This document shows, one piece after another, positions 21,360 through 49,262 of a DNA stretch of 62,196 bases. Source of the stretch: Candidatus Saccharibacteria bacterium UBA6209 (GTDB lineage Bacteria; Patescibacteriota; Saccharimonadia; Saccharimonadales; Saccharimonadaceae); the NCBI GenBank assembly GCA_905370345.1, contig CAJPKE010000001.1, positions 1-62,196 of the forward strand, in the 5' to 3' direction. Within the stretch, counting starts at the first letter, position 1; each line of letters begins with the position of its first letter. The position numbers and the translations under genes are program-made. A model generated the notes under the pieces. The model was not told the origin of the DNA. It searched no databases and was given only the letters and a program-made list of their open reading frames with translations.

Positions 21360-21602
21360 TTGACAAAATCTATTGACATTTTATACTATTAGTGGTATAA
21401 ATAGACACAGCTTTTGTTGACAAGTTGAGTAAATCCTTGTCCGGAAGCGCACTTTGACAAGTGAAGAGAATCTATAAGACGAAGGTGAGATTTTGCGGTA
21501 TTCTAATAAGTACCTCGAAACCTCATCTTCGATCTATGCCATCCGGGCGTTGATCAGTGTTTCCAGCACGGGCGTTCGCCCAGATGAGGAGAGAGTACTA
21601 CA
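21360..21602 (+). promoter_or_regulatory. Cassette A: sigma70-type promoter and ~195-nt structured leader
   Basis: Tandem TTGACA (21360, 21373), 17 bp, TGG-TATAAAT; hairpins 21408-21427, 21480-21531, 21540-21586; boxA-like GCACTTTGACAA 21449-21460; SD AGGAGAG 21587-21593. Confidence 0.75.
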
Positions 21603-21989
21603 ATGTCGTTTATTACCGATGAAGTCAAGGCAAAGAGGGCTGCCGACATCAATGATAGGAGGAAAATACTGGAGACACTCAGGAGAAATGAAGTCTCCCG
21701 TTTCCTCGAAGAGGGAATCCCCACACTGTGCGAGGAAGCCAGGAAAGCTGCAATCAATGAATACCTTATGAAAGGCAAGCTTCCAGACGAGATCCGTATC
21801 TATGATCATGACCGTCGAATCACCTCAGCAGTCGCAAACAACCCCGAGTGTCGTAAGGCACTCCTTAAGAAGCTCCAGAGCCTCGAAGAGAAGGTTCGTG
21901 ACGTTGAATTCAGATACACAGAATCCAACCCGTGGGTAATTACTCCCGATCCTTGCGTTGTCGTCTACTTCTCCAACAACCAGGAGTAG
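21603..21989 (+). CDS. Orphan soluble protein (cassette A)
   Basis: 128-aa ORF with own promoter and SD; no family recognised. Confidence 0.75.
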   Translation: MSFITDEVKAKRAADINDRRKILETLRRNEVSRFLEEGIPTLCEEARKAAINEYLMKGKLPDEIRIYDHDRRITSAVANNPECRKALLKKLQSLEEKVRDVEFRYTESNPWVITPDPCVVVYFSNNQE

Positions 21990-22052
21990 CAGGCAATAAC
22001 CTCGCAAACATGGCGAGTCTGTAGACTCTCCGTCAGATTCTCTCACTTGTCG

Positions 22053-22109
22053 TGTTTGCTCCATAGATGTGTATCTATGCCGATGAGTCGAAAACGACGA
22101 AAGCGAACA
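22053..22109 (+). ncRNA. Type III hammerhead ribozyme (U4C core variant)
   Basis: TGTTTGC-T-C^-CATAGA-TGTGTA-TCTATG-CCGATGA-GTCG-AAAA-CGAC-GAAA-GCGAACA: stems I, II and III all pair; core matches consensus except position 4. Confidence 0.82.
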
Positions 22110-22111
22110 AT

Positions 22112-23101
22112 TTATTCCAACACCACACATTCCTCGACTACAGGCGGATTTCCATCAACAGAAATTGCCAGCATTTGCATATCACAGCTTTCATACTGCG
22201 CATTTTTGGCAATGAACATCTCTACAGAAAAACGCATTTGCTGCTGTTTTTTATTTGTAATTGCCGCCAAGCCATCGCCGAAATTGTCATTTTTACGATA
22301 TTTGACCTCTGTAAAATATAGAACATTATCTTTTTTACTAACAATATCAATTTCGCAATACCGTGTTCGCCAATTCCGTTCTATAATCTCATGACCATCA
22401 GCGACCAACCAATCCGCCGCCGCTTGCTCACCCTTATCGCCAATTTGACGCATCGTGTCTTTTTGCTGGTTTTTAGACCTTCCATCATCAAGCGCATTCT
22501 GCGAGTTCACCTCAACATTAGCATATTTAGTCAACGGCGCAAAACTCAGCCGATGTAGCGGAGTTACACCCAGATTATCAATAGCCGCTCGGTGCTTCGC
22601 CACACCATAACCAACGTGCGAAGAAAAATCATATCCCGGATAAATATTATCCTGCTTCGCCATAAATTTATCACGAGCCACCTTAGCAATAATCGACGCC
22701 GCCGAAACGCTCGGAATCAGACCGTCGGCTTTCGCTATAATTGTTACATACTTTTCTAGCGGTGTACCCGCCAAAAAATTGACCGTCCCATCGATAATAA
22801 TCTCATCAAACGTCAAGCCGCTTTTCTGGCATTTCGCTTGAATTTCTTTGACTGCGCGCCGCGTTGCCAGCTTAAGTGCCTCGCTCATCCCTATTTCATC
22901 CAGCTCCTCAGCAGGAACCCAGCCCAACGCCCAAGCCGACGCTTGCTCGCGAATCTTCTCATTGAGCAATTCACGGCGTTTTTTAGTCAATTTTTTACTA
23001 TCATCAAGCCCTTCAATTTCAGCGCCGCCCAAAACCACCGCGCCAATCACCAACGGCCCCGCCCACGCGCCGCGCCCAACTTCATCAATCCCCAGAATCA
23101 C
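22112..23101 (-). CDS. rnhB: Ribonuclease HII fused to a YraN (UPF0102) domain
   Basis: GIDEVGRG, DSKKL, SVSAASIIAKVARD, HRLSF; C-terminal GDKGEQAA...NWR...EIDIV...EVKYR. Confidence 0.9.
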   Translation of the reverse strand: MILGIDEVGRGAWAGPLVIGAVVLGGAEIEGLDDSKKLTKKRRELLNEKIREQASAWALGWVPAEELDEIGMSEALKLATRRAVKEIQAKCQKSGLTFDEIIIDGTVNFLAGTPLEKYVTIIAKADGLIPSVSAASIIAKVARDKFMAKQDNIYPGYDFSSHVGYGVAKHRAAIDNLGVTPLHRLSFAPLTKYANVEVNSQNALDDGRSKNQQKDTMRQIGDKGEQAAADWLVADGHEIIERNWRTRYCEIDIVSKKDNVLYFTEVKYRKNDNFGDGLAAITNKKQQQMRFSVEMFIAKNAQYESCDMQMLAISVDGNPPVVEECVVLE

Positions 23102-23582
23102 CCGACAATCTTCCCTTTTTCGTCATAAAATTCGCAATAATCCAGCCAATCCAAACTGTTGCCGCGCCTAATGTATTCGCCAAAATATCCCAATTCGTGT
23201 CGTCCAATTTTATGCTCGCCAAGCCTACCTTGACCATAAATAATTCCGCCAATTCATTAATGCAGCCCAGCGCCGAAACTAAAGCGAAAATCGAAAATGC
23301 CATAATCAGCCAATACGCCCGCCATTTCATCGACGAAACCAAATACACCCAGAACAGCCCCGTGAATAGCCCACCGCCCACAAAGTGCGTCGTAAAACTA
23401 GTGTCCTGTCCGTCAATTAACGGCGATGGCAAATACCAAGATATGAAAAACAACAAACATGCTACGTAAAGTAGCCAGCGATATTTTTGCTCCCTATCAA
23501 AGCCGTTTTTCTTCAAAACATAAGGAGCCGTCACAGCCAAAGTCGTCGGAACAAGGACGGATATATAATGAAATATTGCCAT
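23085..23582 (-). CDS. Hypothetical multi-pass membrane protein
   Basis: About five hydrophobic segments; HF.GGG, NE..E and D..WD..AN motifs; leaderless TATAAT-6-ATG. Confidence 0.7.
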   Translation of the reverse strand: MAIFHYISVLVPTTLAVTAPYVLKKNGFDREQKYRWLLYVACLLFFISWYLPSPLIDGQDTSFTTHFVGGGLFTGLFWVYLVSSMKWRAYWLIMAFSIFALVSALGCINELAELFMVKVGLASIKLDDTNWDILANTLGAATVWIGWIIANFMTKKGRLSGDSGD

Positions 23583-23601
23583 ATTGAGATTATAACATGA
23601 G

Positions 23602-23631
23602 AAAACCGCCTCAGATTAAGAGACGGTTTTT
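23602..23631 (-). terminator. rplS terminator
   Basis: AAAACCGCCTC/GAGACGGTTTT inverted repeat after the rplS stop. Confidence 0.7.
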
Positions 23632-23651
23632 AATGATTAACCAATTGACAA

Positions 23652-24173
23652 TTACGCGTCTTTGTGGCGAGCTGCAACTTCAGCAGCCTTAGCGTCAAGT
23701 TCAGCCTGAGCAGCATCTTTTTCAGCTTGTTTTGCAGCAGCAGCCTGAGCAGCTTCTTCCTTCAAGCGTTCAGCTTCCGCCTCTGCCTTAACATCATGAA
23801 TGTCATTAACAGCAGCGCGATCGAAATTCTTAGCCGTCAAGCGAGCTGACTTACCGCTACGCTGACGAAGGAAGCTTAAGAACTTGCGGCGAACCTTAGC
23901 ACGACGAACAATCTCGATCTTCTCAATCAATGGACTGTGCATCAAAAATGACTTTTCAACGCCAACACCTGAAGCAATCTTTCGAACCGTAATACGTGAT
24001 GTGTGCGACTTTTTATTATCGGTGCGGATAACAACGCCCTCGAACATCTGAATACGCTCTTTGTTGCCTTCCTTAATTTTCTGGTAAACGCGAACTGTGT
24101 CACCACTGCGAGCATCGACAACTGCTTGCTTTTTTTGTGCTTGGTTGATTTTGTTGATTAACTCAAAACTCAT
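23652..24173 (-). CDS. rplS: 50S ribosomal protein L19 with Ala/Glu/Lys-rich C-terminal extension
   Basis: GDTVRV...IKEGNKERIQMFEGVVI, TVRKIASGVGVEK. Confidence 0.96.
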   Translation of the reverse strand: MSFELINKINQAQKKQAVVDARSGDTVRVYQKIKEGNKERIQMFEGVVIRTDNKKSHTSRITVRKIASGVGVEKSFLMHSPLIEKIEIVRRAKVRRKFLSFLRQRSGKSARLTAKNFDRAAVNDIHDVKAEAEAERLKEEAAQAAAAKQAEKDAAQAELDAKAAEVAARHKDA

Positions 24174-24308
24174 AATTTTTCCTATCTTCCGAACTCGCTT
24201 CGACTGGCCACGCAGTTGTACCTCTGCGGCTCCACATCAAACAAAGCTCGAATATTTAACTCTCGTACAATTACATAAGATAATAACACAAATCTGAAGA
24301 AATATCAA
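24174..24308 (-). promoter_or_regulatory. rplS promoter and structured leader
   Basis: TTGATA-17-TATTAT (24308-24280); long imperfect hairpin 24190-24250 just upstream of the RBS. Confidence 0.6.
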
Positions 24309-24336
24309 TTAAATAAAATTGGAGTATAATATAGTT

Positions 24337-25470
24337 ATGGATTACAATAAATTAGCACTCGAACTACACGAAAAATACAAAGGTAAAATTACGACTAGCC
24401 TTAGAGATAAAGAGGAGCTTAATCGCGACAAACTTAGCGCTTATTACAGCCCTGGCGTCGGCGCAGTTAGCCAAGCAATTGCCGAAAATCCAGCTGATTT
24501 GCCAAAATACACTTGGACAAACAATCTAGTTGCTGTAATCTCAGACGGCTCAGCAATTTTGGGCTTAGGTAATTTGGGACCAAAAGCCGCCATGCCAGTC
24601 ATGGAGGGAAAAGCTTTGCTATTTAAGCATTTTGCCGATGTCGACGCCGTGCCAATTGTGTTAGACGTTCACGAGCCAGAAGAAATTATTGCCACCGTTA
24701 AAGCCATCGCGCCAAGTTTCGGAGCCATCAACCTCGAAGACATTGCCGCACCAAAATGCTTTGAAATTGAAGAGCGATTGAAGGCAGAATTAGATATTCC
24801 AGTCTTCCACGACGACCAACACGGCACGGCTGTCGTTGTATTAGCAGGCTTAATTAACGCCGCTAAATTGACAGGACGAAACCTGGCAGATTGCAAATTC
24901 GTGGTCATCGGCGCAGGCGCAGCTGGCACGGCAATCATCAAATTGTTAAATCTTTACGGAGCAAAAAACATCGTAGCGGTGGATAGTCGAGGAATTGTCG
25001 GAAAATCACGCACAGATTTGAACGCTGAAAAAACCGCACTATTGGAATACGTCGATGCATCGCAATCTGGCTCAATTGAAGACGCCATCACCGACGCAGA
25101 CGTATTCATCGGCGTATCGCGCGCAGGACTTCTCACTCCAGAATTAGTCCAAAAAATGGCGAAAGATCCAATCGTATTCGCACTAGCAAATCCTGTTCCA
25201 GAAATTATGCCAGATATCGCCAAACAATCCGGCGTCGCAATCATCGGTACAGGTCGTAGCGACTTTCCAAACCAAGTCAACAACTCTCTGGCCTTCCCTG
25301 GAATTTTCCGCGGCGCATTAGATCACGGAGTTAAGAAAATTACCGATCAGCACAAATTGGCGGCTGCTGAAGCACTAGCCAACCTGGTCGAAAATCCAAC
25401 CGTTGATAAAGTCGTCCCAACTGCATTTGATAAGGGTGTGGTTGAAGCTATTGCGAATGTCATTAGATAA
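24337..25470 (+). CDS. NAD(P)-dependent malic enzyme
   Basis: YSPGV, ISDGSAILGLG, MEGKALLFK, NLEDI, FHDDQHGTA, GAGAAG; start set at the leaderless ATG 24337. Confidence 0.93.
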   Translation: MDYNKLALELHEKYKGKITTSLRDKEELNRDKLSAYYSPGVGAVSQAIAENPADLPKYTWTNNLVAVISDGSAILGLGNLGPKAAMPVMEGKALLFKHFADVDAVPIVLDVHEPEEIIATVKAIAPSFGAINLEDIAAPKCFEIEERLKAELDIPVFHDDQHGTAVVVLAGLINAAKLTGRNLADCKFVVIGAGAAGTAIIKLLNLYGAKNIVAVDSRGIVGKSRTDLNAEKTALLEYVDASQSGSIEDAITDADVFIGVSRAGLLTPELVQKMAKDPIVFALANPVPEIMPDIAKQSGVAIIGTGRSDFPNQVNNSLAFPGIFRGALDHGVKKITDQHKLAAAEALANLVENPTVDKVVPTAFDKGVVEAIANVIR

Positions 25471-25472
25471 GC

Positions 25473-27044
25473 CTAAGCACCAGCACCGTACTTAGCCGCA
25501 TCACGAGAATCTCCATCTATAAACAGAGCCACTAACGACTCCTGATTTTGTTTGTCGCAAGCCCCCAAAAATAACACCATTTCAGTCACTCCAGCTTTCT
25601 GAAGAGATTTTTTAGTCTCACTTTCATCGGGTATATCTTCAATGCTGACTTTTGACACATAAACCCTCTTGGCGTTATGTGTCTGTTCTTTCCAGGCGTA
25701 AATTATAAACGGATAAAGCTCTTTTAATCTATTATTTAAGCCAATTGGCAAACCAACAGACTTATCTTCTGAAGTTGCTACACATTTAGCAGTCATAGTT
25801 AATTTGTCCTTAATAATAGGCAGAATGTCCCGCTTCTTCTCGTCGTTTTCGTATCCAGTCATTTTATGCTCGACCTTTTTAGCCTCTTCAGTGCGCGCGT
25901 CAATTACTGCGACCACAGTACCGTCACCACCACGCTCAACATGCAGTACATTCACAATAGAATCTTCTTTAAGCCACGGAAACGTCTCGCTATCAAGCGT
26001 CACAGCATCTCCCGCCTTCAATCCAATTTCTACCAACTGAGAGCTGCCTTCTTCGATTGTCGGCTTCGATTTGTTTAATCTTTTTCTCTTAGCAACTTTT
26101 TTCAAAGACCCGCTCGCAATTTCACCCGCCGCTTCGTAAGTTGTGAATTTTTCAGAAAGAACCCTCAGCTCCCCCTCTAAAATTGACTTCATTTTTTCTT
26201 CCACCACGGTTTTGGCAAGAGTTCGCACATTCGGACAATTTTCCTCAAATACAATTTCCGTATATTCACGAGCTAACAACTCCTCATCCAGATCTCTCAT
26301 CCCGTCTGCACAGTCGAGTATGGTTTTAGTCCACGCCATGTCTCTTTCATAATTAAAGAAGGCTTCAATGCGCTCCATACGTGCACCACTTTCATTCCCA
26401 GACATCGCCTCAAGCTCATCGGCTTTAAGCATTGAAAAATCTGTCAATAGCTCGACCAAGTGATGTGTCTTTTCGCGAGCTGGATCGTATTCAGGTCGAC
26501 TTACTCCAAATTCTATAGGAGGAAAAGTGCTGTCTTTTCTATAAATCCCATCAATCACAGACCTCTTAGTTTCTAGTGTGAGTTGCATATATTCAGAGTC
26601 GGCAACATCTGGGCTGAGATTATTATTCCTCTGAAATTTCTTTACTTTAGGAATTTTACACCCCTCAAGATTGCAGTATTTCGGAACATTAACTTCCGCT
26701 ATATTATCAGGAAAAATCTTATCTAACGATGATATAAAAGCATCTAGTGAGGCTTTATACTCCTTATTAAATTCCTCTTTCAATCGAGAACTCACTTCGT
26801 CAAAATCATAGCGGATATCCAAATATTCAGGAGACTGTCCGTATATATCCTTAGCCTGCTTAAGACTATCAATTACAGGCTTATATTTCCCAACCAAGTC
26901 ATTAAATATGGATGAATCTTTGGACACATCTTCATATATATATTCAAGAAATTTGATGGCAGTACTAAAAATTTCACAGACAGAGTCTTTCTCAGACTCT
27001 GAAGATTCGCTATCGTAACAAGAGTGTTCCGGAATTTCGCTCAT
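25473..27044 (-). CDS. Large acidic hypothetical protein, possible C-terminal RelE/HigB-like domain
   Basis: 523-aa ORF; tail KRVYV...MVLFLGACDKQNQ. Confidence 0.6.
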   Translation of the reverse strand: MSEIPEHSCYDSESSESEKDSVCEIFSTAIKFLEYIYEDVSKDSSIFNDLVGKYKPVIDSLKQAKDIYGQSPEYLDIRYDFDEVSSRLKEEFNKEYKASLDAFISSLDKIFPDNIAEVNVPKYCNLEGCKIPKVKKFQRNNNLSPDVADSEYMQLTLETKRSVIDGIYRKDSTFPPIEFGVSRPEYDPAREKTHHLVELLTDFSMLKADELEAMSGNESGARMERIEAFFNYERDMAWTKTILDCADGMRDLDEELLAREYTEIVFEENCPNVRTLAKTVVEEKMKSILEGELRVLSEKFTTYEAAGEIASGSLKKVAKRKRLNKSKPTIEEGSSQLVEIGLKAGDAVTLDSETFPWLKEDSIVNVLHVERGGDGTVVAVIDARTEEAKKVEHKMTGYENDEKKRDILPIIKDKLTMTAKCVATSEDKSVGLPIGLNNRLKELYPFIIYAWKEQTHNAKRVYVSKVSIEDIPDESETKKSLQKAGVTEMVLFLGACDKQNQESLVALFIDGDSRDAAKYGAGA

Positions 27045-27081
27045 AAACTGATATTTTATCAGTTTATAGCTATAAAGTCAA

Positions 27082-28704: not shown

Positions 28705-28755
28705 ATGAAAATTATACCAAAAAGCTTACGGTTTTACGAGTGATATAATAGTAAT

Positions 28756-29354: not shown

Positions 29355-29445
29355 TTGACTTTATTAACCATATGTGTTATATTTGTATGAGCTTTCTTTG
29401 GAATCCCCCAGAGAAAGTAGTCCCCTACATGAAAGGTTCGAGGAA
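29355..29445 (+). promoter_or_regulatory. Cassette B promoter and leader
   Basis: TTGACT-17-TATATT with TGn; 11-bp 5' hairpin GCTTTCTTTGG/CCAGAGAAAGT 29391-29418; AAAGG..GAGG before ATG. Confidence 0.7.
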
Positions 29446-29739
29446 ATGTTTGACATTTTCTTTATTCTCACAATTCTAGCAACCATGTATGTTGCATGGT
29501 ACGCCTACAGGGCCCCTTCGGGGGTTAGCCACATATGGCACGCGCTAGCCGCCGCGGCTGGCGTGTGGATGACAGTCTTTTTCATCTACTTCATGGTAGC
29601 AGAATCGCCACACCGGCCGATGTACCACACAGTGCTGGTGGCTTTGTTCTACTGCACGACGGCGGCCACTTACACTACCCTACAAGAGAGGGGTAAGACA
29701 GAAGTGAGGAATGAACTGCGGGATAATAAGTCCCGCTGA
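29446..29739 (+). CDS. Orphan small membrane protein, ~3 TM (cassette B)
   Basis: 97 aa from ATG 29446; three hydrophobic segments and a charged tail. Confidence 0.7.
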   Translation: MFDIFFILTILATMYVAWYAYRAPSGVSHIWHALAAAAGVWMTVFFIYFMVAESPHRPMYHTVLVALFYCTTAATYTTLQERGKTEVRNELRDNKSR

Positions 29740-29741
29740 CA

Positions 29742-29802
29742 GATAGTTAGCCCGCCAGAGCAACCAGCTCCGGCTGAGGCCTCTGTCGGCGGGCTAACTA
29801 TC
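29742..29802. terminator. Long hairpin between cassette B and dnaE
   Basis: Perfect 15-bp GATAGTTAGCCCGCC/GGCGGGCTAACTATC with inner stems; no clear U tract. Confidence 0.6.
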
Positions 29803-32800
29803 ACTTTAGAACTACGCACTCTTCACCCAGAGTGTTTTTTAATTGGCTTAGTAGGCTATCATTAGCATCCACCTTAAACGGCAGACGCATGGCTGATTTC
29901 TCTTTCTCACCCAACACCAAAACCACATCAGTCGTGCCAGCATTCTCGCCGCAAACAGACTTCATTTTCACTAACCGCGAATGGTCATTCGGGTCTTTAA
30001 TATACACAAATAACTTTGAAGCGGGAATTTCTGGCGCAACATTAACAGGCGCCGAATGAGTTTTTGGCTGCGGTTTGGCGGCGTCATTTTTTACGGCAGA
30101 CTTCGGAGAAGCTCCATTTTTCTGATTACGATAAGCTTCACGGCGCTCTTTTTTTACGGCAGAGCTAATTTTTGGCGCATCCATTTTACGACCAGTCGAC
30201 TCATAGCCATTGATATCGTTATCCGTAATCACAATAATGTCATCGGCAATTAGTTTACTTTCATTGCCCAAATTTCCGTCACGATCTCGAGCTGAATTTT
30301 TACCAGAAACTCGAATCACTGCGTCCTGAACTAGCTTGGCGCCAACTTTCTCATACAGATTTGGAAAGACAATTATTTCGCCCTCGCCGAATTTATCCTC
30401 AATTCCCACGAACGCCATTTTCGAACCGCTTTTTGTGACAATTGTACGAACGGTGCTAATAATTCCCCCGACCGTCATCATCCGACTGTCGTACTCAGGA
30501 ACTAATTGCGTCAATGGTTGAGTTTGCTCACTCAAATACGTTTCATACCTATCAAGCGGATGCGCCGAAATATACAACCCCAGCAGTTCTCGCTCCCACA
30601 TCAAGCGCTCTTTATCGTCGTGTTTCACAGGAGCCTTCTGGAGATGAAGAGTTGATTGGACGCTCGCCGCATCATCGCCACCCAACATTCCAAACAAATT
30701 GGTCTGCCCGCTGGCGGCTTCTTTTTGGAGCTTGGACGCAAATGATGTAATAGAATCCAGATTGAAAAGCAAATCAGATCGATCGCCCATATCATCAAAC
30801 GCACCAGACTTAATAAGCGACTCCCAGGCTTTTCTATTGAACTTGCTGGTTGAAACACGTCTAGCAAAATCCTCAACCGACGTAAACGGCCCATCTTCGC
30901 GCGCCCGCAGAACTTCCTCGACCGCACCAACGCCAACTCCCTTCACCGCCGACATTCCGAAACGAATTTTATTCTCGTTCGGCACCACAGCAAACTCAAC
31001 GAACGACTCGTTTACATTAGGGCTCAACACGCTAATTCCCATGTGCTTACATTCAGTAATTTCAATTGCCAAACGATCGGTATCATCATGGTCGCTAGTC
31101 ATAAGCGCCGCCATAAACGCGTCAGGATAATGTGCTTTCAAATAAGCCGTCCAATAAGCAATCAAACCATAACAAGCGGCGTGCGACTTATTGAAACAAT
31201 AGTTGGCGAACTCCTCCAACTGAGTCCAGAAAGTTTCCGCAATTTCCTTAGTTGCGCCACCAACTTTAACCGCACCCTCGACAAATTCAGGCTTGACCTT
31301 TTTCATCAAGTCAATTTTCTTCTTACCAACAGCCTTTCGCAACGTGTCAGCCTGACCGCCAGTAAATCCACACCATTCCTTAGAAATCTGCATAAACTGT
31401 TCCTGATAGACCAAAATTCCATAAGTATTTTTCAGCGAGTTTTTCATTCCAGAATGCAAATAAGTTATTTCTTCCTCGCCGTGTTTGCGCCTAATAAAGC
31501 TGTCAATAAACTGCATCGGGCCCGGACGATAAAGAGCCACCATAGCAATAATATCTTCAAACGTAGTCGGCTTCAGTCCGCGCAAATATCGCTTCATTCC
31601 CGCCGATTCCAACTGGAATACGCCAGTCGTGTCGCCGCGCTGGAACAGCTCGTAGGTCTTTTTATCATCAAGAGGCAGCTCTGAAAGATTAATTTCTTTC
31701 TTGTAAGCTTTTCGGATAATCCTCATGGCGTTATTAATAATCGTAAGGTTCGAAAGCCCCAAAAAGTCCATCTTAAGAAGCCCAAGCTCTTCAACTTCGC
31801 CCATCGGGAACTGAGTTGCCACCACGCCCTTTTGCGCCATTTCAAGCGGAATATAATTGACCAACGTATCTGGCGCGATCACCACGCCACAAGCATGAAC
31901 GCCATGGCTACGAATCGTCCCTTCCAGCTGAATTGCATAGTCCAGAACTTCTTTGGCGGTCGGGTTATTTTCATATTCATTCCGAAGGTCCGCGTCTTCT
32001 TTAATACTCACGGACAACGGAATATGCCGCCCCTGGTTTGGTGGCGGAACTAACTTCGCCAAGCGGTCGCTCTCAGCGTACGGAACCTCCAAAACCCTGG
32101 CGACATCACGCACTGCCATACGACCAAACATCTTACCGAACGTTGCGATATTACTGACGTGATCTTCGCCATATTTTTTCGCACAATATTCAATCACTTC
32201 ATCGCGACGCGTATCCTGAATATCAACGTCGATGTCGGGCATAGAAATACGATCAGGATTCAGGAATCGCTCAAACAGTAGTCCATATTTCAGCGGGTCA
32301 AGATCTGTAATGTTCAGCGCATACGCAATAATCGAGCCGGCCGCACTACCACGCCCCGGACCAAAGACAATTCCTTGAGATTTTCCCCAGTTGATAAAAT
32401 CCTGGACGATCAAGAAATAACCCTCATAGCCCATATTTCCCATCACACCAAGCTCCATCTTAGCGCGCTCACGAACTTCGTCAGACAGCTTCGGAATAAT
32501 TTCGTCAGGATCCAACTTTTCAGCCTCCTCCTTCGAAGCTCCATTGTAACGCTGCAATAAACCTTGATATGTCAATCTAAGCAGATATGAATGTTCATTC
32601 TCGCCGTCTGGCAATGGATATTTTGGGATAAGAATTCGCCCAAGCTCAATCTCAACGTCGCAGCGATCAGCTATTTTTTTCGTGTTGCGAATAACTTCAG
32701 GAAATTCCTCTCCCCAGTGGTCAATAATATCGCGCGGATCCGTCAAATGAAGCTCAAAATCCTTCAAGCTCATTCGCTTTTCATCGCTAAGATATGAACC

Positions 32801-42069: not shown

Positions 42070-42192
42070 AAAACCTCCATTTAGATTGTGCTTTGATTAT
42101 ATATGATGGATTATTTACCGTCAGCGTATTGTAACCATAGGCATTTTATGATATAGTAATAAAGTTAAAATCATAAAATAAAAAGGATAACG

Positions 42193-42861
42193 ATGACACC
42201 GAAAAATGTTTGTATTCCGCGCGAATTGCAACTTCAAGCTGCGATGTTCAGATTAGGAAAAGTCGATGACGAAATTCATGCCGGCTATGAAATTCTCCAA
42301 AAATATCATAAAACCGTGACTTTTTTTGGATCAGCCAGGATAACTGAAGATAACGAATATTATCAAAAAGCCAAAGATCTAGCGTTTCAATTAGCTAAAG
42401 AAGGCTACACAATCATCACTGGCGGCGGTGGCGGAATTATGGAAGCGGCAAACCGCGGCGCTATGGAAGCTGGCGGAAAATCAGTCGGATTCAACATTCG
42501 CTTGCCACACGAGCAATCCTTAAACAACTACACGACAGATTCGTTCGCATTCACTCACTTCGCGCCACGAAAAATCGTTATGACGCTTCTGGCTGACGCG
42601 TACGTTTGTTTCCCTGGCGGATTCGGTACGATGGATGAAATTTGTGAGATTATCACATTGACACAAACTAAGAAAATGGCGCCAGTGCCAATTGTTCTGT
42701 TTGATAAAAAATTCTGGGGCAAATGGGATGATTTTGTTTGCGAAAATATGCTTCCAAATAAGCTAATTTCTGACGGCGATGAAAAAACCTACACAATTAC
42801 TGAAGACATTACGGAAGTAGTTGAGCTAATTAGGAATCAGCGAACTTGTTGCGACCGATAG
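42193..42861 (+). CDS. LOG family nucleotide phosphoribohydrolase (TIGR00730-like)
   Basis: FFGSAR, TGGGGGIMEAANRGA, PGGFGTMDE. Confidence 0.9.
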   Translation: MTPKNVCIPRELQLQAAMFRLGKVDDEIHAGYEILQKYHKTVTFFGSARITEDNEYYQKAKDLAFQLAKEGYTIITGGGGGIMEAANRGAMEAGGKSVGFNIRLPHEQSLNNYTTDSFAFTHFAPRKIVMTLLADAYVCFPGGFGTMDEICEIITLTQTKKMAPVPIVLFDKKFWGKWDDFVCENMLPNKLISDGDEKTYTITEDITEVVELIRNQRTCCDR

Positions 42862-43341
42862 CTATTTCTTAGTTTTCGGCTCAATCCAACAAATTCCGCC
42901 CTGGCAAACCACTCGCTCCACAGCTGGATTATATGTGCGCGGGTGGTTTTTATATCGGCGCGTAATCTCAAATCCCAGACCTCGCTTGCCATACGTTGTT
43001 TGCTGCTTTCCCAGAGGTAACTGGCAATGATAGTTATTTATAATGTCAATCGGATTAAACGAAATCACTTGCCCATCAACGTCCAAAAGCACCCATTCAG
43101 AAGCCTTGAACGGCGCCCATTTGTCCACTTTCGGCGCAATGGCCATTAGTGATTGATAAATTTCTTCTGCCGTAGCGTTTGACGGATCCAGACCTAGAGA
43201 TCGAATAATCGAGTGCGCCCTAGCCAATATTTCCGCAATCAATCGCACATCGCTATCATCCCTAGTCATCTGCCTGAGCTCTGTCAACGCTCGGCGTTTT
43301 TTCACGTCACCGCCTAACAATTTTCCCAAATTTTGCGCCAT
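42862..43341 (-). CDS. Hypothetical protein
   Basis: 159-aa ORF translationally coupled to the PfkB gene. Confidence 0.7.
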   Translation of the reverse strand: MAQNLGKLLGGDVKKRRALTELRQMTRDDSDVRLIAEILARAHSIIRSLGLDPSNATAEEIYQSLMAIAPKVDKWAPFKASEWVLLDVDGQVISFNPIDIINNYHCQLPLGKQQTTYGKRGLGFEITRRYKNHPRTYNPAVERVVCQGGICWIEPKTKK

Positions 43342-44303
43342 TATATTTCCCTTTCTTGAATTGGCATAGCATGAAGCACCGTGCCAGCATATAAAATTCC
43401 AGCCTTTGCTCCAATTTTCATAACCACCGAACTAGCGTTCGCACTGCCCATAATCACAGAGTTTTTCAAATTGCCACTTCGCGCCCATTCACTCAAAAAT
43501 CCCGACGCAAACGCATCTCCAGCGCCAGTTCTGTCAATTGACGGTCTATCGTCGTACATTAGCGCTCGCACGATGGTTTTTCCGTCGCTTGCGATTGAGC
43601 CATTTACACCGTCCGTCACCAAAACGACCGGAACTAATCTCAAGCCTCTCCTAACCAAGGCCTCCAAATCCTCGCCAGACACCAATTGTTGCATCTCCTC
43701 TTTATTAAGCGTCAAAACGTCGACATCAGACAATAATCCCAGCAATTTATCCTTTTGCGCCAATTCTTTCTTTCCAGGATTAAAACAGATTTTCATATCG
43801 CGACGCTTGGCTTGCTGGAATAATTTATGAAGCATCGGCATATTTCCCGCCAAAGTTGAAACATATAGCCAATCCGCGTCCTCTTCAGACAAATCAAAAT
43901 CCGCCTCATGATAATGCGTTGAAGCACCGCGGTACGTTAAAATTGTTCGCTCGCCATTTGAGGCTAATAGTAAAACTGAATATCCCGTGCTATATTTTGG
44001 CGAATATCGCACCAAATGCGTATCAATATTTTCCTTATCCAAGTCAGCAATCACTGCTTGCCCAGCTGGATCATGACCGATTGCGCCCATAAAACTAACA
44101 TAATGCCCTTGCCTGGAAAACGTTACCGCGGCGTTCGTAGCGCCACCGCCAGTCGAAAAATGAATCTGGTTTACGTCGGCTTTCGCCCCCAAATCCAACC
44201 GCGCAAAACAATGTTCTGGACTTTCACAAACTGGCGTCAGTGCGTCTGATTGACTTAAAAACACATCTTGAATCGCCGCACCAACGGTGATAATTTTTGC
44301 CAT
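43341..44303 (-). CDS. PfkB/ribokinase family carbohydrate kinase
   Basis: GGGATNAA, NKEE, DRTGAGDAFASG. Confidence 0.9.
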   Translation of the reverse strand: MAKIITVGAAIQDVFLSQSDALTPVCESPEHCFARLDLGAKADVNQIHFSTGGGATNAAVTFSRQGHYVSFMGAIGHDPAGQAVIADLDKENIDTHLVRYSPKYSTGYSVLLLASNGERTILTYRGASTHYHEADFDLSEEDADWLYVSTLAGNMPMLHKLFQQAKRRDMKICFNPGKKELAQKDKLLGLLSDVDVLTLNKEEMQQLVSGEDLEALVRRGLRLVPVVLVTDGVNGSIASDGKTIVRALMYDDRPSIDRTGAGDAFASGFLSEWARSGNLKNSVIMGSANASSVVMKIGAKAGILYAGTVLHAMPIQEREI

Positions 44304-45214
44304 TAAACCACCGCCTTTCGCACGGAATTAAACGCCTTAATCTTCGACTCCACCACTTCCTGTACGGCGGCATAAACTGGCGGCATTAATTTAACAATGG
44401 CGTACTCATTTGGATTTTCTCGCAAAGTTTTCTCCAGGGTTGTTCGGAAAGCGTAGCGCATATCAGAATTAATATTGATTTTAGAAACGCCAATTTTCGC
44501 AGCGTCCTCAAAATAATGTAGCGGCGTGCCAGACCCACCGTGCAACGAAATCTGACAATAAATCGCCTCACGAATGTCAGCCAACAAATCCAAATCCAAC
44601 ATTTTCGGAACTGGATATTTGCCATGCAAATTGCCAATCGCCGCCGCAAAAGTATCAATTCCAGTCGCCTCGACGAACGCACGCGCGCCCTCTGGCGTGG
44701 AAAAAGTCTTTTTTATTTCTTCGTAATTTATATCTTCCGTATGAACATTTGAACTTCCGCCAAAATAATGCGGCTCAGATTCCACTAGCGCGCCAGTAAA
44801 CTTGGCATATTCAACAACTTCACGAGTCTTCGCAATAATTTCCTCGTCCGAAGCGTCGTGATTCGCCTGAGAAATATCAATATGGACAAACTCATATCCA
44901 GCGTCAATGGCTCGCTTACAGCCCTCAACTGTCGGACCGTGGTCCAAATTCAAATACATTTCAATTCCGTACTCAGCCTTATAATTGTCCACCAGATCGC
45001 GAACGTTCTCTAGACCCATAGCCTTCACTTCGGCGTCGGAAACCTCAACCAACACTGGCGATTGGAGTTTTTGCGCCGCGCGTGCCACCGCAATCAGCGT
45101 TTCTTGATTGTCAATATTAAACGCCCCAACCGCAAAACGCTGCGCCCGTGTCCGCTGCATTAAATGACGCGCCCGTGTCGTGTTTTTCCGAATCTCTGAA
45201 ATCGATAATCCCAT
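44303..45214 (-). CDS. fba: Class II fructose-bisphosphate aldolase
   Basis: AVGAFN, LDHG, AIGNLHG, LHGGSG, KININSD. Confidence 0.9.
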   Translation of the reverse strand: MGLSISEIRKNTTRARHLMQRTRAQRFAVGAFNIDNQETLIAVARAAQKLQSPVLVEVSDAEVKAMGLENVRDLVDNYKAEYGIEMYLNLDHGPTVEGCKRAIDAGYEFVHIDISQANHDASDEEIIAKTREVVEYAKFTGALVESEPHYFGGSSNVHTEDINYEEIKKTFSTPEGARAFVEATGIDTFAAAIGNLHGKYPVPKMLDLDLLADIREAIYCQISLHGGSGTPLHYFEDAAKIGVSKININSDMRYAFRTTLEKTLRENPNEYAIVKLMPPVYAAVQEVVESKIKAFNSVRKAVV

Positions 45215-45273
45215 GCTGCCCCCTAAAATACTTATGGTAATTATATCAATTACTGCCCGCTATGCCAAGAGAA

Positions 45274-45379
45274 TTGACATCATGTTGTTTTGGTGATAAT
45301 ATAAAATAACTTTTGCCCAAGGCTTACCCCTAAGGGCGAAAGAGCCCTTTGGTCTTGAGCGTCAGGAGAGGAGAGGACA
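45274..45379 (+). promoter_or_regulatory. Cassette C promoter and leader
   Basis: TTGACA-17-TAATAT with TGn; 5' hairpin CTTTTGCCC/GGGCGAAAG 45310-45342; SD AGGAGAGGAGAGG. Confidence 0.72.
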
Positions 45380-45577
45380 ATGAGTCCCATCGTGCGAGCC
45401 GCTAAGCTAATGCTTAATGGCTTAATCTTTATCACCCTGATTGCGTGCGCAATCTGGTGTGCGGCGTTTATCTATTTCTTCTTAGCCTACGAACTACTCG
45501 AATCCTTGGCATTCGCCCTGGGGAGTATCTATCTTCTCGTGCTTATCTGTAGCATGATATATCACGATCGACCATAG
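45380..45577 (+). CDS. Orphan 65-aa two-TM membrane protein (cassette C)
   Basis: Two hydrophobic helices; own promoter, SD and terminator. Confidence 0.7.
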   Translation: MSPIVRAAKLMLNGLIFITLIACAIWCAAFIYFFLAYELLESLAFALGSIYLLVLICSMIYHDRP

Positions 45578-45585
45578 GCTAACAC

Positions 45586-45652
45586 AACCCGTCAGGACTA
45601 CTTGCTTTGAGGTCTTTAATTAGATCTTGGCGGTAGCTCCTGGCGGGTTTTT
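45586..45652 (+). terminator. Long-stem terminator of cassette C
   Basis: AACCCGTCAGGA/TCCTGGCGGGTT plus inner stems, then T tract. Confidence 0.7.
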
Positions 45653-46614
45653 CACTGGAGAAAATTGACAACACTACGAACAATTGAATCGACATCCAAA
45701 CCGTGCTTTTTCCATAATTCAGACATCTTGCCCGACTCTCCAAATGCGTCATTAACGCCAATTCGCTTCATCTTCACAGGCAAATTCTCACTAAGAACTT
45801 CTGTCACGCTTGAACCAAATCCGCCAGTGATCTGCCCTTCTTCCGCCGTAATGACGGCTTGGCATTTTTGAGCCGCGTTAAGCACAGCATCCTCATCCAA
45901 CGGCTTAATCGTCGGAAAATGAATCACTTCCGCCTGAATGTCATATTCATTCGCAAGCTTTTCCGCTGCCGACAGTAATTGATAAGTCATCACGCCAGTT
46001 CCAAACAAAGCAACATCTTTGCCGCGCCTCAACGTATAACTTTTTCCAATCTCAAAAGTAGATTGATTTAGGAACAGCGGTGTTTTTTCTCTTGGCAATC
46101 TTACGTAGTTTGGGCGTTTATCTCCAGCCATTGCCGCCGCTATGAGCTTAGCCTCATTAGTATCACCGGGCGCCAAAACCACCATATTAGGCAAACTTCG
46201 CATCAGCGCAATATCTTCCAGCATTTGATGCGTTGCGCCGTCCGGACCGACATTAAGCCCCGCATGAGAACCTATCAGCTTGACCGGCTGATTATTAAGG
46301 CAAATAGTCGTGCGAATCTGCTCCCAGTTGCGACCCGGACTAAACGTCGCATAACTGGCTACAAACGGAATATTTCCCATAGCCGCCAATCCAGACGCCA
46401 CGGTAACCAAATTCTGTTCCGCCACGCCAACTTCAATTACCCGCGGACTCCCGATTTCCTCGTAAAACTTACCAAAACCAACGCTTTCCATCAAATCCGC
46501 ACTCAGCGCCACCACCAAATTATTTTTCTTCGCAATATCCACCAAGCCTTCGCCAAAACCAACGCGAATTGCCGCAAGCTCCGAATTCTGCCAATTCTCC
46601 ATTAAGAAACTCAT
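45652..46614 (-). CDS. Transketolase, C-terminal subunit
   Basis: GVAEQN, GPDGATHQ, TIKPLD; start set at ATG 46614 overlapping the upstream stop. Confidence 0.92.
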   Translation of the reverse strand: MSFLMENWQNSELAAIRVGFGEGLVDIAKKNNLVVALSADLMESVGFGKFYEEIGSPRVIEVGVAEQNLVTVASGLAAMGNIPFVASYATFSPGRNWEQIRTTICLNNQPVKLIGSHAGLNVGPDGATHQMLEDIALMRSLPNMVVLAPGDTNEAKLIAAAMAGDKRPNYVRLPREKTPLFLNQSTFEIGKSYTLRRGKDVALFGTGVMTYQLLSAAEKLANEYDIQAEVIHFPTIKPLDEDAVLNAAQKCQAVITAEEGQITGGFGSSVTEVLSENLPVKMKRIGVNDAFGESGKMSELWKKHGLDVDSIVRSVVNFLQ

Positions 46615-47447
46615 TCGCCGCCTCCTCCACTCAATTGAGCAAGCGCCCACTCCGCTTCCTCGGCGTTTGGAGATTTTCCATGCCAGCGATAATCATATTC
46701 CATAAAATCAACGCCACGACCAGGAATTGTATGCGCAATTATCACACTCGGCCGCCGAGAGATCTTTGCCTTATCAATCGCCTGAATTATCGCCAAATGA
46801 TTATGCCCGTCAATCTCTTGCGCGTCCCAGCCAAAACTTCGCCATTTGTCCGCCAAATCACCTAGCGGCATCACCTTTTCCGTATCGCCACCAATCTGAA
46901 TATTATTTCTATCAACAATCGCAATTAAATTCGCCAGATTATATTTTTTCGCAAACATCGCCGCTTCCCAAATATTACCTTCGTCAAGCTCGCCATCGCC
47001 CAAACTGCAGTAAACGAACCGCTCAGAATTGCCACCCAAATATTGCAATGAATACGCCATGCCGGCCGCCTGACTTAGACCGCACCCCAGAGGACCGCTA
47101 GTTGTTTCAATTCCCGGTAAATTGCCACGTTCTGGATGACCCTGAAGCCTAGAACCAAATTTTCGCAAATTAGCCAACTCTTTCTTATCGAAAAATCCCC
47201 GCTCCGCCAGCGTCGCATATAAAAGCGGAGCATAATGACCGTTACTCATCACGAAAATATCCCGATATTCCCAATTAGGATCCTCAGGATCTAGCTGCAT
47301 GGCGTGAAAATACAAAACCGCCATAACATCAGCGAATCCCAAGCAACCAGCCGAATGGCCCGAACCAGCCTCGGACAACTCACGAATGACAGACTTTCGT
47401 AATTGTTGTGATATTTTCTTCAGACTAGTTATAGCGTCAATATCCAT
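46611..47447 (-). CDS. Transketolase, N-terminal subunit
   Basis: SGH, SNGH, LQGHP, SGPLGCG, GDGELDEG TPP motif. Confidence 0.93.
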   Translation of the reverse strand: MDIDAITSLKKISQQLRKSVIRELSEAGSGHSAGCLGFADVMAVLYFHAMQLDPEDPNWEYRDIFVMSNGHYAPLLYATLAERGFFDKKELANLRKFGSRLQGHPERGNLPGIETTSGPLGCGLSQAAGMAYSLQYLGGNSERFVYCSLGDGELDEGNIWEAAMFAKKYNLANLIAIVDRNNIQIGGDTEKVMPLGDLADKWRSFGWDAQEIDGHNHLAIIQAIDKAKISRRPSVIIAHTIPGRGVDFMEYDYRWHGKSPNAEEAEWALAQLSGGGGE

Positions 47448-48097
47448 TAAAGCACGCTCGTTTTATTAATCTCCTGCTGCAATCTGGCGAAAATGGCGCG
47501 AGGATCTGACGATTTCTGAATAACACCGCCAACGTTCAGAACGTTAACACCGCCCTGAACTAGGCTGTACGCATTATCTACCGCCACTCCACCGTCCCAA
47601 CCGATTTCAACACTAGGATTAATAGCTTTAATAAGTCGTATTTTTTCTAGTTGCATCAAACTAGCAGTTCCACCAAATCGCCCCAGTTCACCGCTAAAAA
47701 TCATTACGTGATCTGCTATTTTTATCAATTCCTCAACCGTTCGCGGAACCGTTGGCTTAAGTAGCGCTAATCCCGCCATAATTCCAGCTTGACGAATCTG
47801 CATGAGCGCGGTCTTCACATCTCCCGTCGCCTCCGCGTGAATAATAATCATATGCGGCCTTAAGGCAATCAACTTCGGAACATACTCAGCAACATCATTA
47901 ACCATTGCGTGAATATCAATCATCCAACCCTCTGGCGCCCATAATTCTGGAATTCCAACAGTCAGAGTCGGAGCAAACTCACCATCAGAAATGTCAATAT
48001 GAACACGCTCAACAAGACCAGTTATCTTATCAACCTGCTCTTTATATTGATCGGCATTTTCTGCCAAAATTGCTGGTGCGATTACAGAATTACTCAT
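47447..48097 (-). CDS. rpe: Ribulose-phosphate 3-epimerase
   Basis: APAIL, HIDISDGEF, DIHAMV, DGGV. Confidence 0.88.
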   Translation of the reverse strand: MSNSVIAPAILAENADQYKEQVDKITGLVERVHIDISDGEFAPTLTVGIPELWAPEGWMIDIHAMVNDVAEYVPKLIALRPHMIIIHAEATGDVKTALMQIRQAGIMAGLALLKPTVPRTVEELIKIADHVMIFSGELGRFGGTASLMQLEKIRLIKAINPSVEIGWDGGVAVDNAYSLVQGGVNVLNVGGVIQKSSDPRAIFARLQQEINKTSVL

Positions 48098-48546
48098 GAC
48101 AATTCATCCAATTGCGCATTACGCCTATTAAATCGCGGAGCATTCGCATAAGGAGTGTTTAGCCATGTTTCCACAATCCCCTTCCAAGCAGACTCATTAT
48201 CTTCCAAAACTCGCGCTGGCAAACATAGAACATTCGAGTCGTTATCTTGGCGTGTCATTTTCGCCTCGAAAGCATCCCAAATCACACTGGCACGAATTCC
48301 CTTAAAGCGGTTCGCCGCCATACACATTCCTTGACCGCCGCCGCAAATTAATATCGCACGCGGATCTTTACTATCATCACCAATGACCTTTAACGCCGCC
48401 GCCTGCGCGAATTGCGGAAAATCGTCATCAGGATTTAATTCTACACCGCCGACGTCTTGCACGTCATAGCCGTTCTTAACCAAATAAGCAAAAACTTTTT
48501 CTTTCAGCATAAAGCCGCGGTGATCAGATCCGAGGTAGATTTTCAT
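48094..48546 (-). CDS. rpiB: Ribose-5-phosphate isomerase B
   Basis: GSDHRG, CGGGQG, ANRFKGIRA, NDSNVLCL. Confidence 0.92.
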   Translation of the reverse strand: MKIYLGSDHRGFMLKEKVFAYLVKNGYDVQDVGGVELNPDDDFPQFAQAAALKVIGDDSKDPRAILICGGGQGMCMAANRFKGIRASVIWDAFEAKMTRQDNDSNVLCLPARVLEDNESAWKGIVETWLNTPYANAPRFNRRNAQLDELS

Positions 48547-48621
48547 GATTTTAGTATAAGCGTTTTCGGTGATTTTTGCAAGGAAAAGTTAGGTATTTTA
48601 TCAGAGGTAGAGTGTAGCTAT

Positions 48622-48770
48622 TTGACAAAGAGCGTTGACATCTTGTGACTGGTATGATATACATATATTAGCTTTTCAAACCGTGAAAAGCGACTCCCGG
48701 GGAGTTCACCCCGATTGAGGTCGCGGTTCTGAAAAGCCGCACCTCAAAATTTTCTCTAGGAGGAGAAATC
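48622..48770 (+). promoter_or_regulatory. Cassette D promoter and structured leader
   Basis: Tandem TTGACA (48622, 48635), 17 bp, TGA-TATACAT; hairpins 48671-48691, 48716-48747 and SD-covering TTTCTC/GAGAAA. Confidence 0.75.
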
Positions 48771-49154
48771 ATGTCTACTGAGATTTTGACTACCATCACG
48801 ATTTATATCTTGGTGGGAGGACTGTCCGCAGCTTTGACTGAGGCACTGTACTGTCGCCAACTGGCTAAAGCGAGCGTACTCGCTGCAGCCGTGTCCGCCG
48901 CTATCCATCTCGTATTCGTCATGAGCGCGTGGAAGGAAGCAGCGGAGGAGGCACCATATCAGGTGGTATCCCCGCTGCTGACGGCAGTATGTGACGCTCC
49001 TGCTTGGGCAGCCGTCGTCTTTTTGACGACGGGCATCGTACTCGCAGCCATCCAGCGGCACCGCGAAAAGGTCGCCGAAAAGAAGTTGATGGCAGCTCTG
49101 ACGAAACCCTTTGGGGTCAATGAACCCGAGGAGAATGAGTCTGAGAAGGACTGA
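48771..49154 (+). CDS. Orphan membrane protein, ~3 TM (cassette D)
   Basis: 127-aa GC-rich ORF, AGGAGGAG SD, charged tail. Confidence 0.75.
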   Translation: MSTEILTTITIYILVGGLSAALTEALYCRQLAKASVLAAAVSAAIHLVFVMSAWKEAAEEAPYQVVSPLLTAVCDAPAWAAVVFLTTGIVLAAIQRHREKVAEKKLMAALTKPFGVNEPEENESEKD

Positions 49155-49226
49155 GGTGCTACGCGCCAGCAGAAGGCGCGCTAAGATAAATATTCTGTAA
49201 AACAAAACCGTCGGAAATCCCGGCGT

Positions 49227-49262
49227 CCCCGCACTATCACGGTGCGGGGTTATTTCCTTTTT
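49227..49262 (+). terminator. Terminator of cassette D
   Basis: CCCCGCACT-ATCAC-GGTGCGGGG then TTATTTCCTTTTT. Confidence 0.75.

Follow-up and report, generated by a model that had tools for sequence, protein, structure and literature searches.

A candidate family of small-protein expression cassettes in intergenic slots of Nanosynbacter-type Saccharibacteria

Four cassettes with a common promoter and transcript-start layout

We analyzed a stretch of 62,196 nucleotides (nt), called here the window (positions 1 to 62,196 of contig CAJPKE010000001.1, assembly GCA_905370345.1, Candidatus Saccharibacteria bacterium UBA6209), that carries four small solitary expression cassettes. They are labelled c1, c2, c3, and c4 in their order along the window; all are on the + strand, and the - strand carries most of the genes. 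The window has a GC content of 44.9 % and a Saccharibacteria-like gene set, including a split transketolase, the gap-rpiB-rpe-tkt-fba run, a type IV pilus ATPase, dnaE, and gatCAB, and the closest relatives of its rpe gene are found in Candidatus Nanosynbacter genomes. Cassette c1 lies between pepN and rnhB and c2 between a SpoU-methylase gene and dnaE; c3 occupies the slot between tktC and fba (tktC|fba), c4 that between gap and rpiB (gap|rpiB), and rpe sits between c3 and c4. The comparative sample consists of 80 Nanosynbacter-like loci around rpe (L001-L080; Rpe 68-99 % identical to that of the window), and the cross-genome comparison covers the c3 and c4 slots. Coordinates of all features are given in Table 1.

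Each cassette opens with TTGAC(A/T), a 17-nt spacer, and a TGn-extended -10 box, followed by A(G/A)CTTT, which begins 36, 35, 34, and 35 nt from the start of the -35 box in c1, c2, c3, and c4, respectively. A second TTGACA lies 13 nt upstream of the -35 box in c1 and c4. The A of A(G/A)CTTT falls 5-7 nt past the -10 box, the usual position of a transcription start, and, judging by this distance, would be the first base of the transcript. Each cassette is probably driven by a sigma-70 promoter that is close to the consensus and has a TGn-extended -10 box. A Shine-Dalgarno (SD) sequence, an open reading frame (ORF) of 65-128 amino acids (aa), hydrophobic in three of the four cases, and a long 3' stem follow. 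This layout and the uniform + orientation had been described from the sequence alone in a first-pass annotation of the same DNA, and both are confirmed by the sequence and by folding. The 5'-terminal hairpin that it assigned to all four cassettes is recovered from position +2 in the minimum free energy (MFE) folds of c2, c3, and c4, whereas in c1 it is present in the local fold of the first 52 nt but absent from the fold of the whole 197-nt leader. The 3' stems of all cassettes have fold z-scores from -2.6 to -6.7, with T runs in c2, c3, and c4. Intrinsic terminators (a GC-rich stem plus a T run) were found by a scan in c2 (29816-29835) and c4 (49227-49249); the c3 stem is followed by TTTTT, and no T run follows the long 3' stem of c1. 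The same annotation regarded many of the host genes as leaderless. Indeed, among the 38 window genes whose upstream gap is 20 nt or longer, 17 have a leaderless-like start, in which the -10 box ends 4-12 nt ahead of the start codon, and an SD core precedes 13.

The pattern TTGACN{29,31}ARCTTT has four matches in the window, all of them at c1-c4 and on the + strand, with 0.30 expected and none of 100 shuffles reaching four; this test is post hoc and circular, because the pattern was derived from the same four sites. The scan of the related loci (1.3 Mb) with a relaxed promoter and start motif is an independent test of the pattern. It yielded 85 matches in 60 of the 80 loci, all in the cassette orientation. 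By coordinates, 84 of them lie in the tktC|fba or gap|rpiB slots and one in a third slot (locus L015), and none is upstream of a housekeeping gene, where equal frequency of the motif had been named as the outcome that would speak against a cassette family. In the window, the relaxed motif finds c1-c4 and nothing else.

Table 1. Features of the four cassettes in the window
Feature	Coordinates	Strand	Basis
c1 promoter: upstream TTGACA 21360-21365, -35 TTGACA 21373-21378, 17-nt spacer, TGg+TATAAA 21393-21401	21360..21401	+	sequence reading, pattern match
c1 putative start AGCTTT 21409 and 5'-terminal hairpin 21410-21448	21409..21448	+	local MFE fold of 21409-21460
RAGATH-10 motif in c1 leader	21517..21596	+	Rfam RF03147, 79.8 bits, gathering score 41.2, model positions 1-82 of 82
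c1 ORF, 128 aa, soluble (P0001)	21603..21989	+	67 homologues, 60-97 % identity in best local alignment
c1 long 3' stem	22004..22059	+	fold -26.9 kcal/mol, z -4.4
Candidate type III hammerhead ribozyme, core CCGAUGAG...GAAA	22053..22109	+	Rfam RF00008, 31.8 bits, sub-threshold
c2 promoter: TTGACT 29355, 17-nt spacer, TGt+TATATT 29375-29383	29355..29383	+	pattern match
c2 leader: AGCTTT 29390, 5' hairpin 29391-29418, SD-like GAGGAA	29390..29445	+	fold
c2 ORF, 97 aa, hydrophobic (P0002)	29446..29739	+	12 homologues, 60-99 %
c2 3' module: long stem 29742-29802 (15-nt perfect arms), terminator-like hairpin 29816-29835 with T run	29742..29835	+	fold, repeat search, terminator scan
c3 promoter: TTGACA 45274, 17-nt spacer, TGa+TAATAT 45294-45302	45274..45302	+	fixed offset in related loci
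c3 leader, type B: AACTTT 45308, 5'-terminal helix 45310-45342 or alternative long stem, purine-rich SD	45308..45379	+	covariance model R1, 68.1 bits
c3 ORF, 65 aa, 2 transmembrane segments (P0003)	45380..45577	+	16 homologues (cluster representatives); same family in 25 related loci
c3 long 3' stem and T run (terminator)	45586..45649	+	fold z -5.8; 90-100 % conserved in 26 loci
c4 5' module: about 50 nt of conserved upstream sequence, upstream TTGACA 48622-48627, -35 TTGACA 48635-48640, TGa+TATACA 48655-48663	48583..48663	+	left edge placed by comparison with empty sites
c4 leader, type A: AGCTTT 48670; P1 48671-48691, P2 48698-48713, P3 48715-48747, SD-sequestering P4 48751-48768	48670..48770	+	fold z -5.4; covariance model R2, 110.2 bits
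c4 ORF, 127 aa, 3 transmembrane segments and acidic tail (P0004)	48771..49154	+	46 homologues
c4 3' module: hairpins 49162-49180, 49209-49225, and 49227-49249, then T run	49162..49249	+	fold, terminator scan; 75-98 % conserved in 32 loci

Filled and empty slots in related loci

In filled slots, conservation covers about 120 nt leading up to the promoter, the leader, and about 110 nt past the stop codon, and the intervening ORF differs: nucleotide identity of the modules is 75-100 %, while the ORFs match patchily or not at all. The promoter offset is fixed, and in the 32 nearest loci the proteins on either side of the slot are 98-100 % identical. The c3 and c4 slots are thus recombination hot spots, with conserved modules, replaced ORFs, empty slots, and modules recombining between slots.

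The gap|rpiB slot is filled (503-766 nt) in 44 of the 66 loci that have both flanks, empty (28-79 nt) in 21, and 181 nt long in one. The empty sites keep the rpiB promoter and end exactly at the start of the conserved segment upstream of the cassette. At least six unrelated cargo families were found here, including the family of the c4 protein with three transmembrane (TM) segments (17 members, window counted), a lipoprotein family with a lipobox (nine), a family with two or three TM segments (seven), cysteine-rich soluble 70-aa proteins (five), and soluble 62-67-aa proteins (four). The middle hairpin of the c4 3' module resembles the gap terminator when read on the - strand. On that strand, the window (48590-48600) and most near-clade loci have a second extended -10 box (TGnTAAAAT) upstream of the leaderless rpiB promoter; it lies inside the conserved 5' module, and through it the cassette may provide rpiB with an additional promoter.

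At tktC|fba, at least 400 nt are present in 57 of 69 loci, less than 100 nt in seven, and an intermediate length in five, so that presence, absence, and empty sites, whose examination had been proposed as a check, are seen at both slots. The tktC|fba cargo falls into at least five families, the largest being the c3 family with two TM segments (26 members, window counted). The four empty tktC|fba sites of the near clade have one common junction and retain the 3' arm of the cassette terminator; because of this arm and the single shared junction, we conclude that a deletion gave rise to them. In distant clades, the spacers are short and contain no cassette remnant. In L033, the segment upstream of the tktC|fba cassette (approximately 10449-10983, - strand) resembles by eye the rpiB-promoter flank of the gap|rpiB slot, and the cassette may have been copied from there together with the divergent leaderless promoter.

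Traits of insertion sequences or miniature inverted-repeat transposable elements were not found: none of the four cassettes is bracketed by terminal inverted repeats, the 62 window ORFs include no transposase, and the empty-site junctions have no duplication. A Pfam scan of the 62 ORFs likewise revealed no integrase or transposase domains.

The third slot, adjacent to pheT, holds a cassette in L015 (1023-1390, - strand) with the same promoter, a AGCTTTTG start, a different leader, a 76-aa low-complexity or disordered protein, and a clean terminator. In the window, a 44-nt direct repeat (89 % identical) of the pheT start and its leaderless promoter brackets a 511-nt segment (56614-57168), which contains a leaderless gene with low third-position GC (ATG 56819 to 57093) where L015 has the cassette. 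The pheT-side slot of the window was therefore rejected as a family member.

Leaders and 3' modules of the two slots

Three leader types can be distinguished besides that of c1. Leader A, found in c4, has four helices. RNAalifold on 17 distinct sequences gives 30 base pairs, three of which, all in P2, have compensatory changes. Pairing of its SD hairpin is kept through sequence variants, for instance UUCUCU/GGAGAA and UUCCCU/AGGGAA. For leader B, found in c3, an alignment of 36 sequences supports a long stem with covariation, one pair being A-U in 17 sequences, G-C in 13, and G-U in six. The 5'-terminal helix of this leader, which is mutually exclusive with the long stem, is paired in 98.8 % of 322 alignment cells, compared to 47-67 % in slid-column controls, and the 5' end CUUYYG covaries with the apical loop CRRAAG across L001-L080, for instance CUUCUG with CAGAAG. 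Because pairing of the 5' end with the apical loop excludes the long stem preferred by RNAalifold, leader B may alternate between two folds. The c2 leader is of a third, short type.

The leader B covariance model has 72 matches: 54 in tktC|fba, 17 in gap|rpiB, and c3 of the window. The leader A model has 29 strong matches in all, which lie in gap|rpiB, in one cassette downstream of tktC (L068), and at c4 of the window. There are no other strong matches to either model, and none at c1 or c2. Since leaders A and B both match in both slots, they are common to the two. In addition, L030 has leader B joined to the 3' module that is usually paired with leader A.

Leaders A and B and both 3' module types have no match in Rfam, with nothing credible for c3 and c4 at permissive thresholds and no match in ten related loci (three with the other 3' module type, and seven more searched at gathering scores). 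For c2, even permissive thresholds gave nothing credible, with no ribozyme and no RAGATH motif.

Cargo proteins and their history

The four cargo proteins of the window (128, 97, 65, and 127 aa in c1 to c4) are mutually unrelated. The c2, c3, and c4 proteins are hydrophobic with two or three predicted TM segments, and the c1 protein is soluble. The first-pass annotation called these ORFs orphans, which does not hold: homologues number 67, 12, 16, and 46 for c1, c2, c3, and c4, respectively, and every ORF has relatives in Saccharibacteria. None of 26 cargo proteins (the four of the window and 22 from related loci) scored above the cut-off against Pfam, NCBIfam, PADLOC, or PHROGs, the best sub-cut-off match being that of the L020 cargo to phrog_37877 (E = 6e-4). 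The fold search with a model of the lipoprotein cargo (predicted local distance difference test, pLDDT, 74) was unusable, with a best E of 0.64, and the protein language-model look-alikes of the c4 protein are probably members of its own cluster. Two cargo families begin with the codons for MST. For c2, most database homologues are annotated with an alternative start, GTG 29374, which could also be the start of c2 but lies upstream of its presumed transcription start. The c4 frame is the only one open in all 14 family members examined; the antisense ORF at 48756-49205 was rejected as a real gene, being broken in relatives, including the 99.7 %-identical L003.

GC content at third codon positions (GC3) is 0.57, 0.64, 0.57, and 0.62 in c1 to c4, the four highest values among the 62 window ORFs (mean 0.44, standard deviation 0.06, next highest 0.52), in agreement with the elevation noted earlier by eye. 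Fourfold-degenerate sites across the window have a strong strand asymmetry. Strand bias was nevertheless rejected as the source of the excess, which persists against housekeeping genes of the same strand: fourfold-site GC is 0.56 in the window cargo and 0.43 in these genes. In 91 cargo ORFs from the related loci it is 0.61, compared to 0.43-0.475 in housekeeping genes. Possible causes of the raised GC3 are biased gene conversion at a recombination hot spot and a foreign source.

Homologues in the same slot are 34-63 % identical to the c3 protein and 37-71 % to the c4 protein, or are undetectable, with the exception of L003 (100 %). In comparison with L003, the rate of synonymous substitution (dS) is 0.011 in the c4 ORF but 0.25-0.66 in rpiB, gap, and rpe; nucleotide identity is 0.98-1.00 in the ORF and 0.83-0.95 in most flank windows. 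The reverse is seen with L001 and L007. Here dS is similar in the c4 ORF (0.22-0.26) and the flanks (0.22-0.29), whereas the rate of nonsynonymous substitution (dN) is 0.16-0.17 in the ORF and at most 0.01 in the flanks, with dN/dS of 0.6-0.8 and at most 0.03, respectively. Relatives with near-identical flanks have c4 cargo that is 69-72 % identical. In a 100-nt identity profile, the cassette is thus the most similar segment in comparison with L003 and the least similar with L001 and L007. The history of the cassette differs from that of its flanks, so it has its own genealogy, which requires recombination between lineages.

These data bear on a first alternative, namely that the cassettes are ordinary lineage-specific small genes with strong promoters and that the family is an artefact of four sites picked by eye. 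Each ORF does have relatives, the c3 family recurs in its slot in 25 related loci and the c4 family in 16, and the pattern test in the window was post hoc. However, the motif is restricted to slots in 1.3 Mb of independent sequence, unrelated ORFs stand behind the same leader, leaders are common to the slots, cassettes and flanks have different histories, and the GC3 values rank first to fourth of 62. We consider this explanation improbable overall and largely refuted for c3 and c4.

A second alternative, proposed in the first-pass annotation, is that the cassettes are type I toxin-antitoxin-like loci, each with a small hydrophobic toxin, a stable and inert mRNA with a sequestered SD, and control by an antisense RNA. 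It would account for the small hydrophobic ORFs, putative toxins, in three of four cassettes, for the SD-sequestering hairpins with compensatory variants and the 5'-terminal hairpins, and for the several copies between core genes whose presence varies by species. Known loci of this type, hok/sok, AapA/IsoA, and TisB/IstR, share hydrophobic small ORFs, structured 5' untranslated regions (UTRs) that hide the SD, a stable-mRNA architecture, several intergenic copies, and variable presence. The cassettes differ from them in the lack of a conserved antisense promoter and in heterogeneous, hypervariable cargo. A consensus scan of the transcribed part of filled cassettes of both slots (45 and 60 sequences, window included) revealed no conserved antisense promoter-like site and picked up only the neighbours' own promoters; an antitoxin transcribed from a weak promoter or from another place in the genome could have escaped it. 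The cargo in the same slots includes a lipoprotein family and soluble 62-70-aa proteins, the c1 protein is soluble as well, and the longest cargo, at 140 aa, exceeds the usual length of type I toxins. These observations make the toxin-antitoxin explanation unlikely, although it stands somewhat above the ordinary-gene one. As for RNA-derived insertions, also suggested at first, nothing in the cassette data points to such an origin.

A RAGATH-10 leader and a hammerhead-like element in c1

The leader of c1 matches the RAGATH-10 motif (Rfam RF03147) over its full length, and c2, c3, and c4 have no such match. The 3' strand of the outer stem overlaps the c1 SD GAGGAGAG (21586-21593). RAGATH-10 is typed in Rfam as a small RNA gene, whereas in c1 it is part of the 5' UTR, and a cis-regulatory role is suggested by this position and by the outer stem covering the SD. 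RAGATH motifs reportedly owe their name to an association with hammerhead-associated genes, to which the arrangement in c1 would correspond, and were defined in ribozyme-associated selfish elements.

An element resembling a type III hammerhead ribozyme lies 64 nt past the c1 stop codon. Its score is below the gathering score of RF00008 (48.5 bits), with E = 9.8e-5 in a search of 901 nt. Stems I, II, and III would have eight, four, and seven base pairs; GAAA and a CUC site are present, and the core reads CCGAUGA, compared to CUGAUGA in the Rfam consensus. The MFE fold of the isolated stretch is a three-way junction. The 5' strand of stem III overlaps and competes with the stronger long 3' stem upstream. 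A simple hammerhead descriptor has this element as its sole match in 1.36 Mb. By its sequence, the element is a candidate hammerhead ribozyme. In the open-access literature searched we found no papers on RAGATH-10 and none on a hammerhead ribozyme in Saccharibacteria, and the main text of PMC5737381 does not mention RAGATH.

Relatives of the c1 protein are about 128 aa long and vary in a mosaic pattern. The AlphaFold2 model (pLDDT 89.7) has a long helix and a small alpha/beta domain, with no significant match among PDB folds (best E 0.27). The clusters nearest to the protein in a language-model search are viral hypothetical proteins (scores 0.82-0.84), which is a lead only.

The cassettes could be viewed as phage remnants ("morons") or as ribozyme-associated selfish elements with RAGATH motifs, scattered through the chromosome. 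Both c1 elements, the viral neighbours of the c1 protein, and the weak phrog_37877 match of the L020 cargo point in this direction. On the other hand, the window has no phage or mobile-element genes, c1 and c4 DNA has no match in 50,697 phage records, 25 of the 26 cargo proteins have no PHROGs match, and c2, c3, c4, and the ten related loci have neither a ribozyme nor a RAGATH match. We regard this view as having as low a probability as the ordinary-gene one.

Proposed mechanism and comparison with known systems

We favor, with some confidence, the following explanation, which is also the simplest for the data as a whole: c1-c4 are members of a cassette family of Nanosynbacter-type Saccharibacteria, each cassette being a self-contained monocistronic unit that expresses one small protein, and the cassettes are exchanged by homologous recombination. 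The cassettes would occupy fixed intergenic slots between core genes. The transcript would begin at A(G/A)CUUU, its first bases closing a hairpin from +2, and continue through a structured leader that in most cases ends in an SD-sequestering hairpin, and through a small ORF with raised GC3 that mostly encodes a membrane or secreted protein; the long 3' hairpins would end transcription. By analogy with other systems, stabilization of the mRNA by the terminal hairpins is plausible, and so is a restriction or gating of translation by the SD hairpin. The conserved 5' and 3' untranslated modules and the flanking core genes could serve as homology arms, and homologous recombination, probably following DNA uptake, would swap, replace, or delete the ORF within a slot and occasionally act between slots. 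Our best guess for the cargo is strain-variable envelope proteins that act in contacts with the host, phages, or competitors.

Thus a common grammar with interchangeable cargo and no visible integrase, as originally proposed for all four sites, holds for the c3 and c4 slots, where conserved modules, unrelated ORFs, empty slots, and discordant histories are seen; the comparison is limited to these two slots. Several points weigh against extending or generalizing it. What would carry the slot results over to c1 and c2 is the common promoter and 5' grammar by itself, and c1, with its different leader and hammerhead-like 3' end, may belong to a distinct class that has just the promoter style in common with the others. 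The near-clade empty tktC|fba sites, being products of deletion, are not virgin sites. No cargo family was found in both slots, so that movement between slots is seen for leaders and 3' modules rather than for ORFs. The raised GC3 could come from foreign origin rather than from recombination. Finally, the cargo dN/dS of 0.35-0.77 is as compatible with relaxed constraint as it is with diversifying selection.

The gene cassettes of integrons, among them lone attC sites that lack an integrase, are similar in having small uncharacterized ORFs with a long imperfect hairpin, interchangeable cargo, and a fixed position. Site-specific recombination at attC-like 3' hairpins would fit the small ORFs of no assigned function, each followed by an imperfect long hairpin, the single orientation, and the interchangeable cargo. 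It is at odds with the absence of an integrase among the 62 window ORFs, with the strong promoter and structured leader that each cassette brings along, and with the solitary rather than arrayed arrangement. The hairpin feet look by eye unlike the attC cores (RYYYAAC/GTTRRRY), and the boundaries are not at the hairpin, because the conserved segments extend across the promoter and leader; exchange seems to depend on homologous sequence in the untranslated modules and in the flanks. We consider site-specific recombination of this kind highly improbable.

More speculatively, the cassettes could be an integrase-free counterpart of integrons, portable modules that combine an expression unit with homology arms, so that natural transformation drops small ORFs into slots and the re-assorted envelope and effector repertoire sets strain specificity toward the actinobacterial host, phages, and rival epibionts. 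This broader idea is tentative, and we give it less credence than the exchange model itself, yet more than any of the alternatives above; if it is true, all members of the repertoire would share a single post-transcriptional control, exerted through the A(G/A)CUUU 5' end and the SD hairpins. The earlier suggestion that the cargo is aimed at a high-GC host is pure speculation, and an action of cassette products or mRNAs inside such a host is scarcely credible.

Two further comparisons concern the 5' end. In the variable lipoprotein genes of Mycoplasma, too, the promoter, the 5' end, and the first codons are conserved ahead of a variable envelope protein (in the cassettes, two cargo families start with MST), but the cassettes vary by replacement of whole unrelated ORFs between lineages, with no repeat expansion or within-genome inversion seen. 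The stabilizing 5' stem-loops of E. coli ompA and B. subtilis ermC and aprE resemble the hairpin within 1-2 nt of the inferred 5' end. A plain stabilizer hairpin, however, does not require A(G/A)CUUU to be kept across unrelated leaders, as it is in the cassettes, and mRNA stability alone is an insufficient account of this conservation.

No description of these cassettes was found in the open-access literature searched. Because Saccharibacteria genomes are tiny and mostly conserved, loci that vary between near-identical strains are prime candidates for determinants of host range, phage resistance, and competition, and the cassette signature allows such loci to be found genome-wide. The analysis also adds two conserved 5'-UTR structures without a match in Rfam 15 and places RAGATH-10 in a defined position, in a leader with its outer stem over the SD. 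Recombination through untranslated modules, if true, would be a simple recombinase-free route to cassette shuffling, and the modular design (a strong promoter, stabilizing ends, and a gated SD) could serve genetics in these bacteria.

Additional observations

Two other places in the window deserve mention. A stretch of 501 nt (2139-2639) lacks tRNAs, Rfam matches, and ORFs of 60 aa or more; it adjoins the upstream side of an SD-led 104-aa ORF (1824-2138, - strand) without a Pfam match. Next to c4, the gap gene (49274-50296, - strand) and the longest RelA/SpoT ORF (50145-51884, + strand) overlap head-to-head by 152 nt, and the RelA/SpoT start, TTG 50145, is probably called too far upstream.

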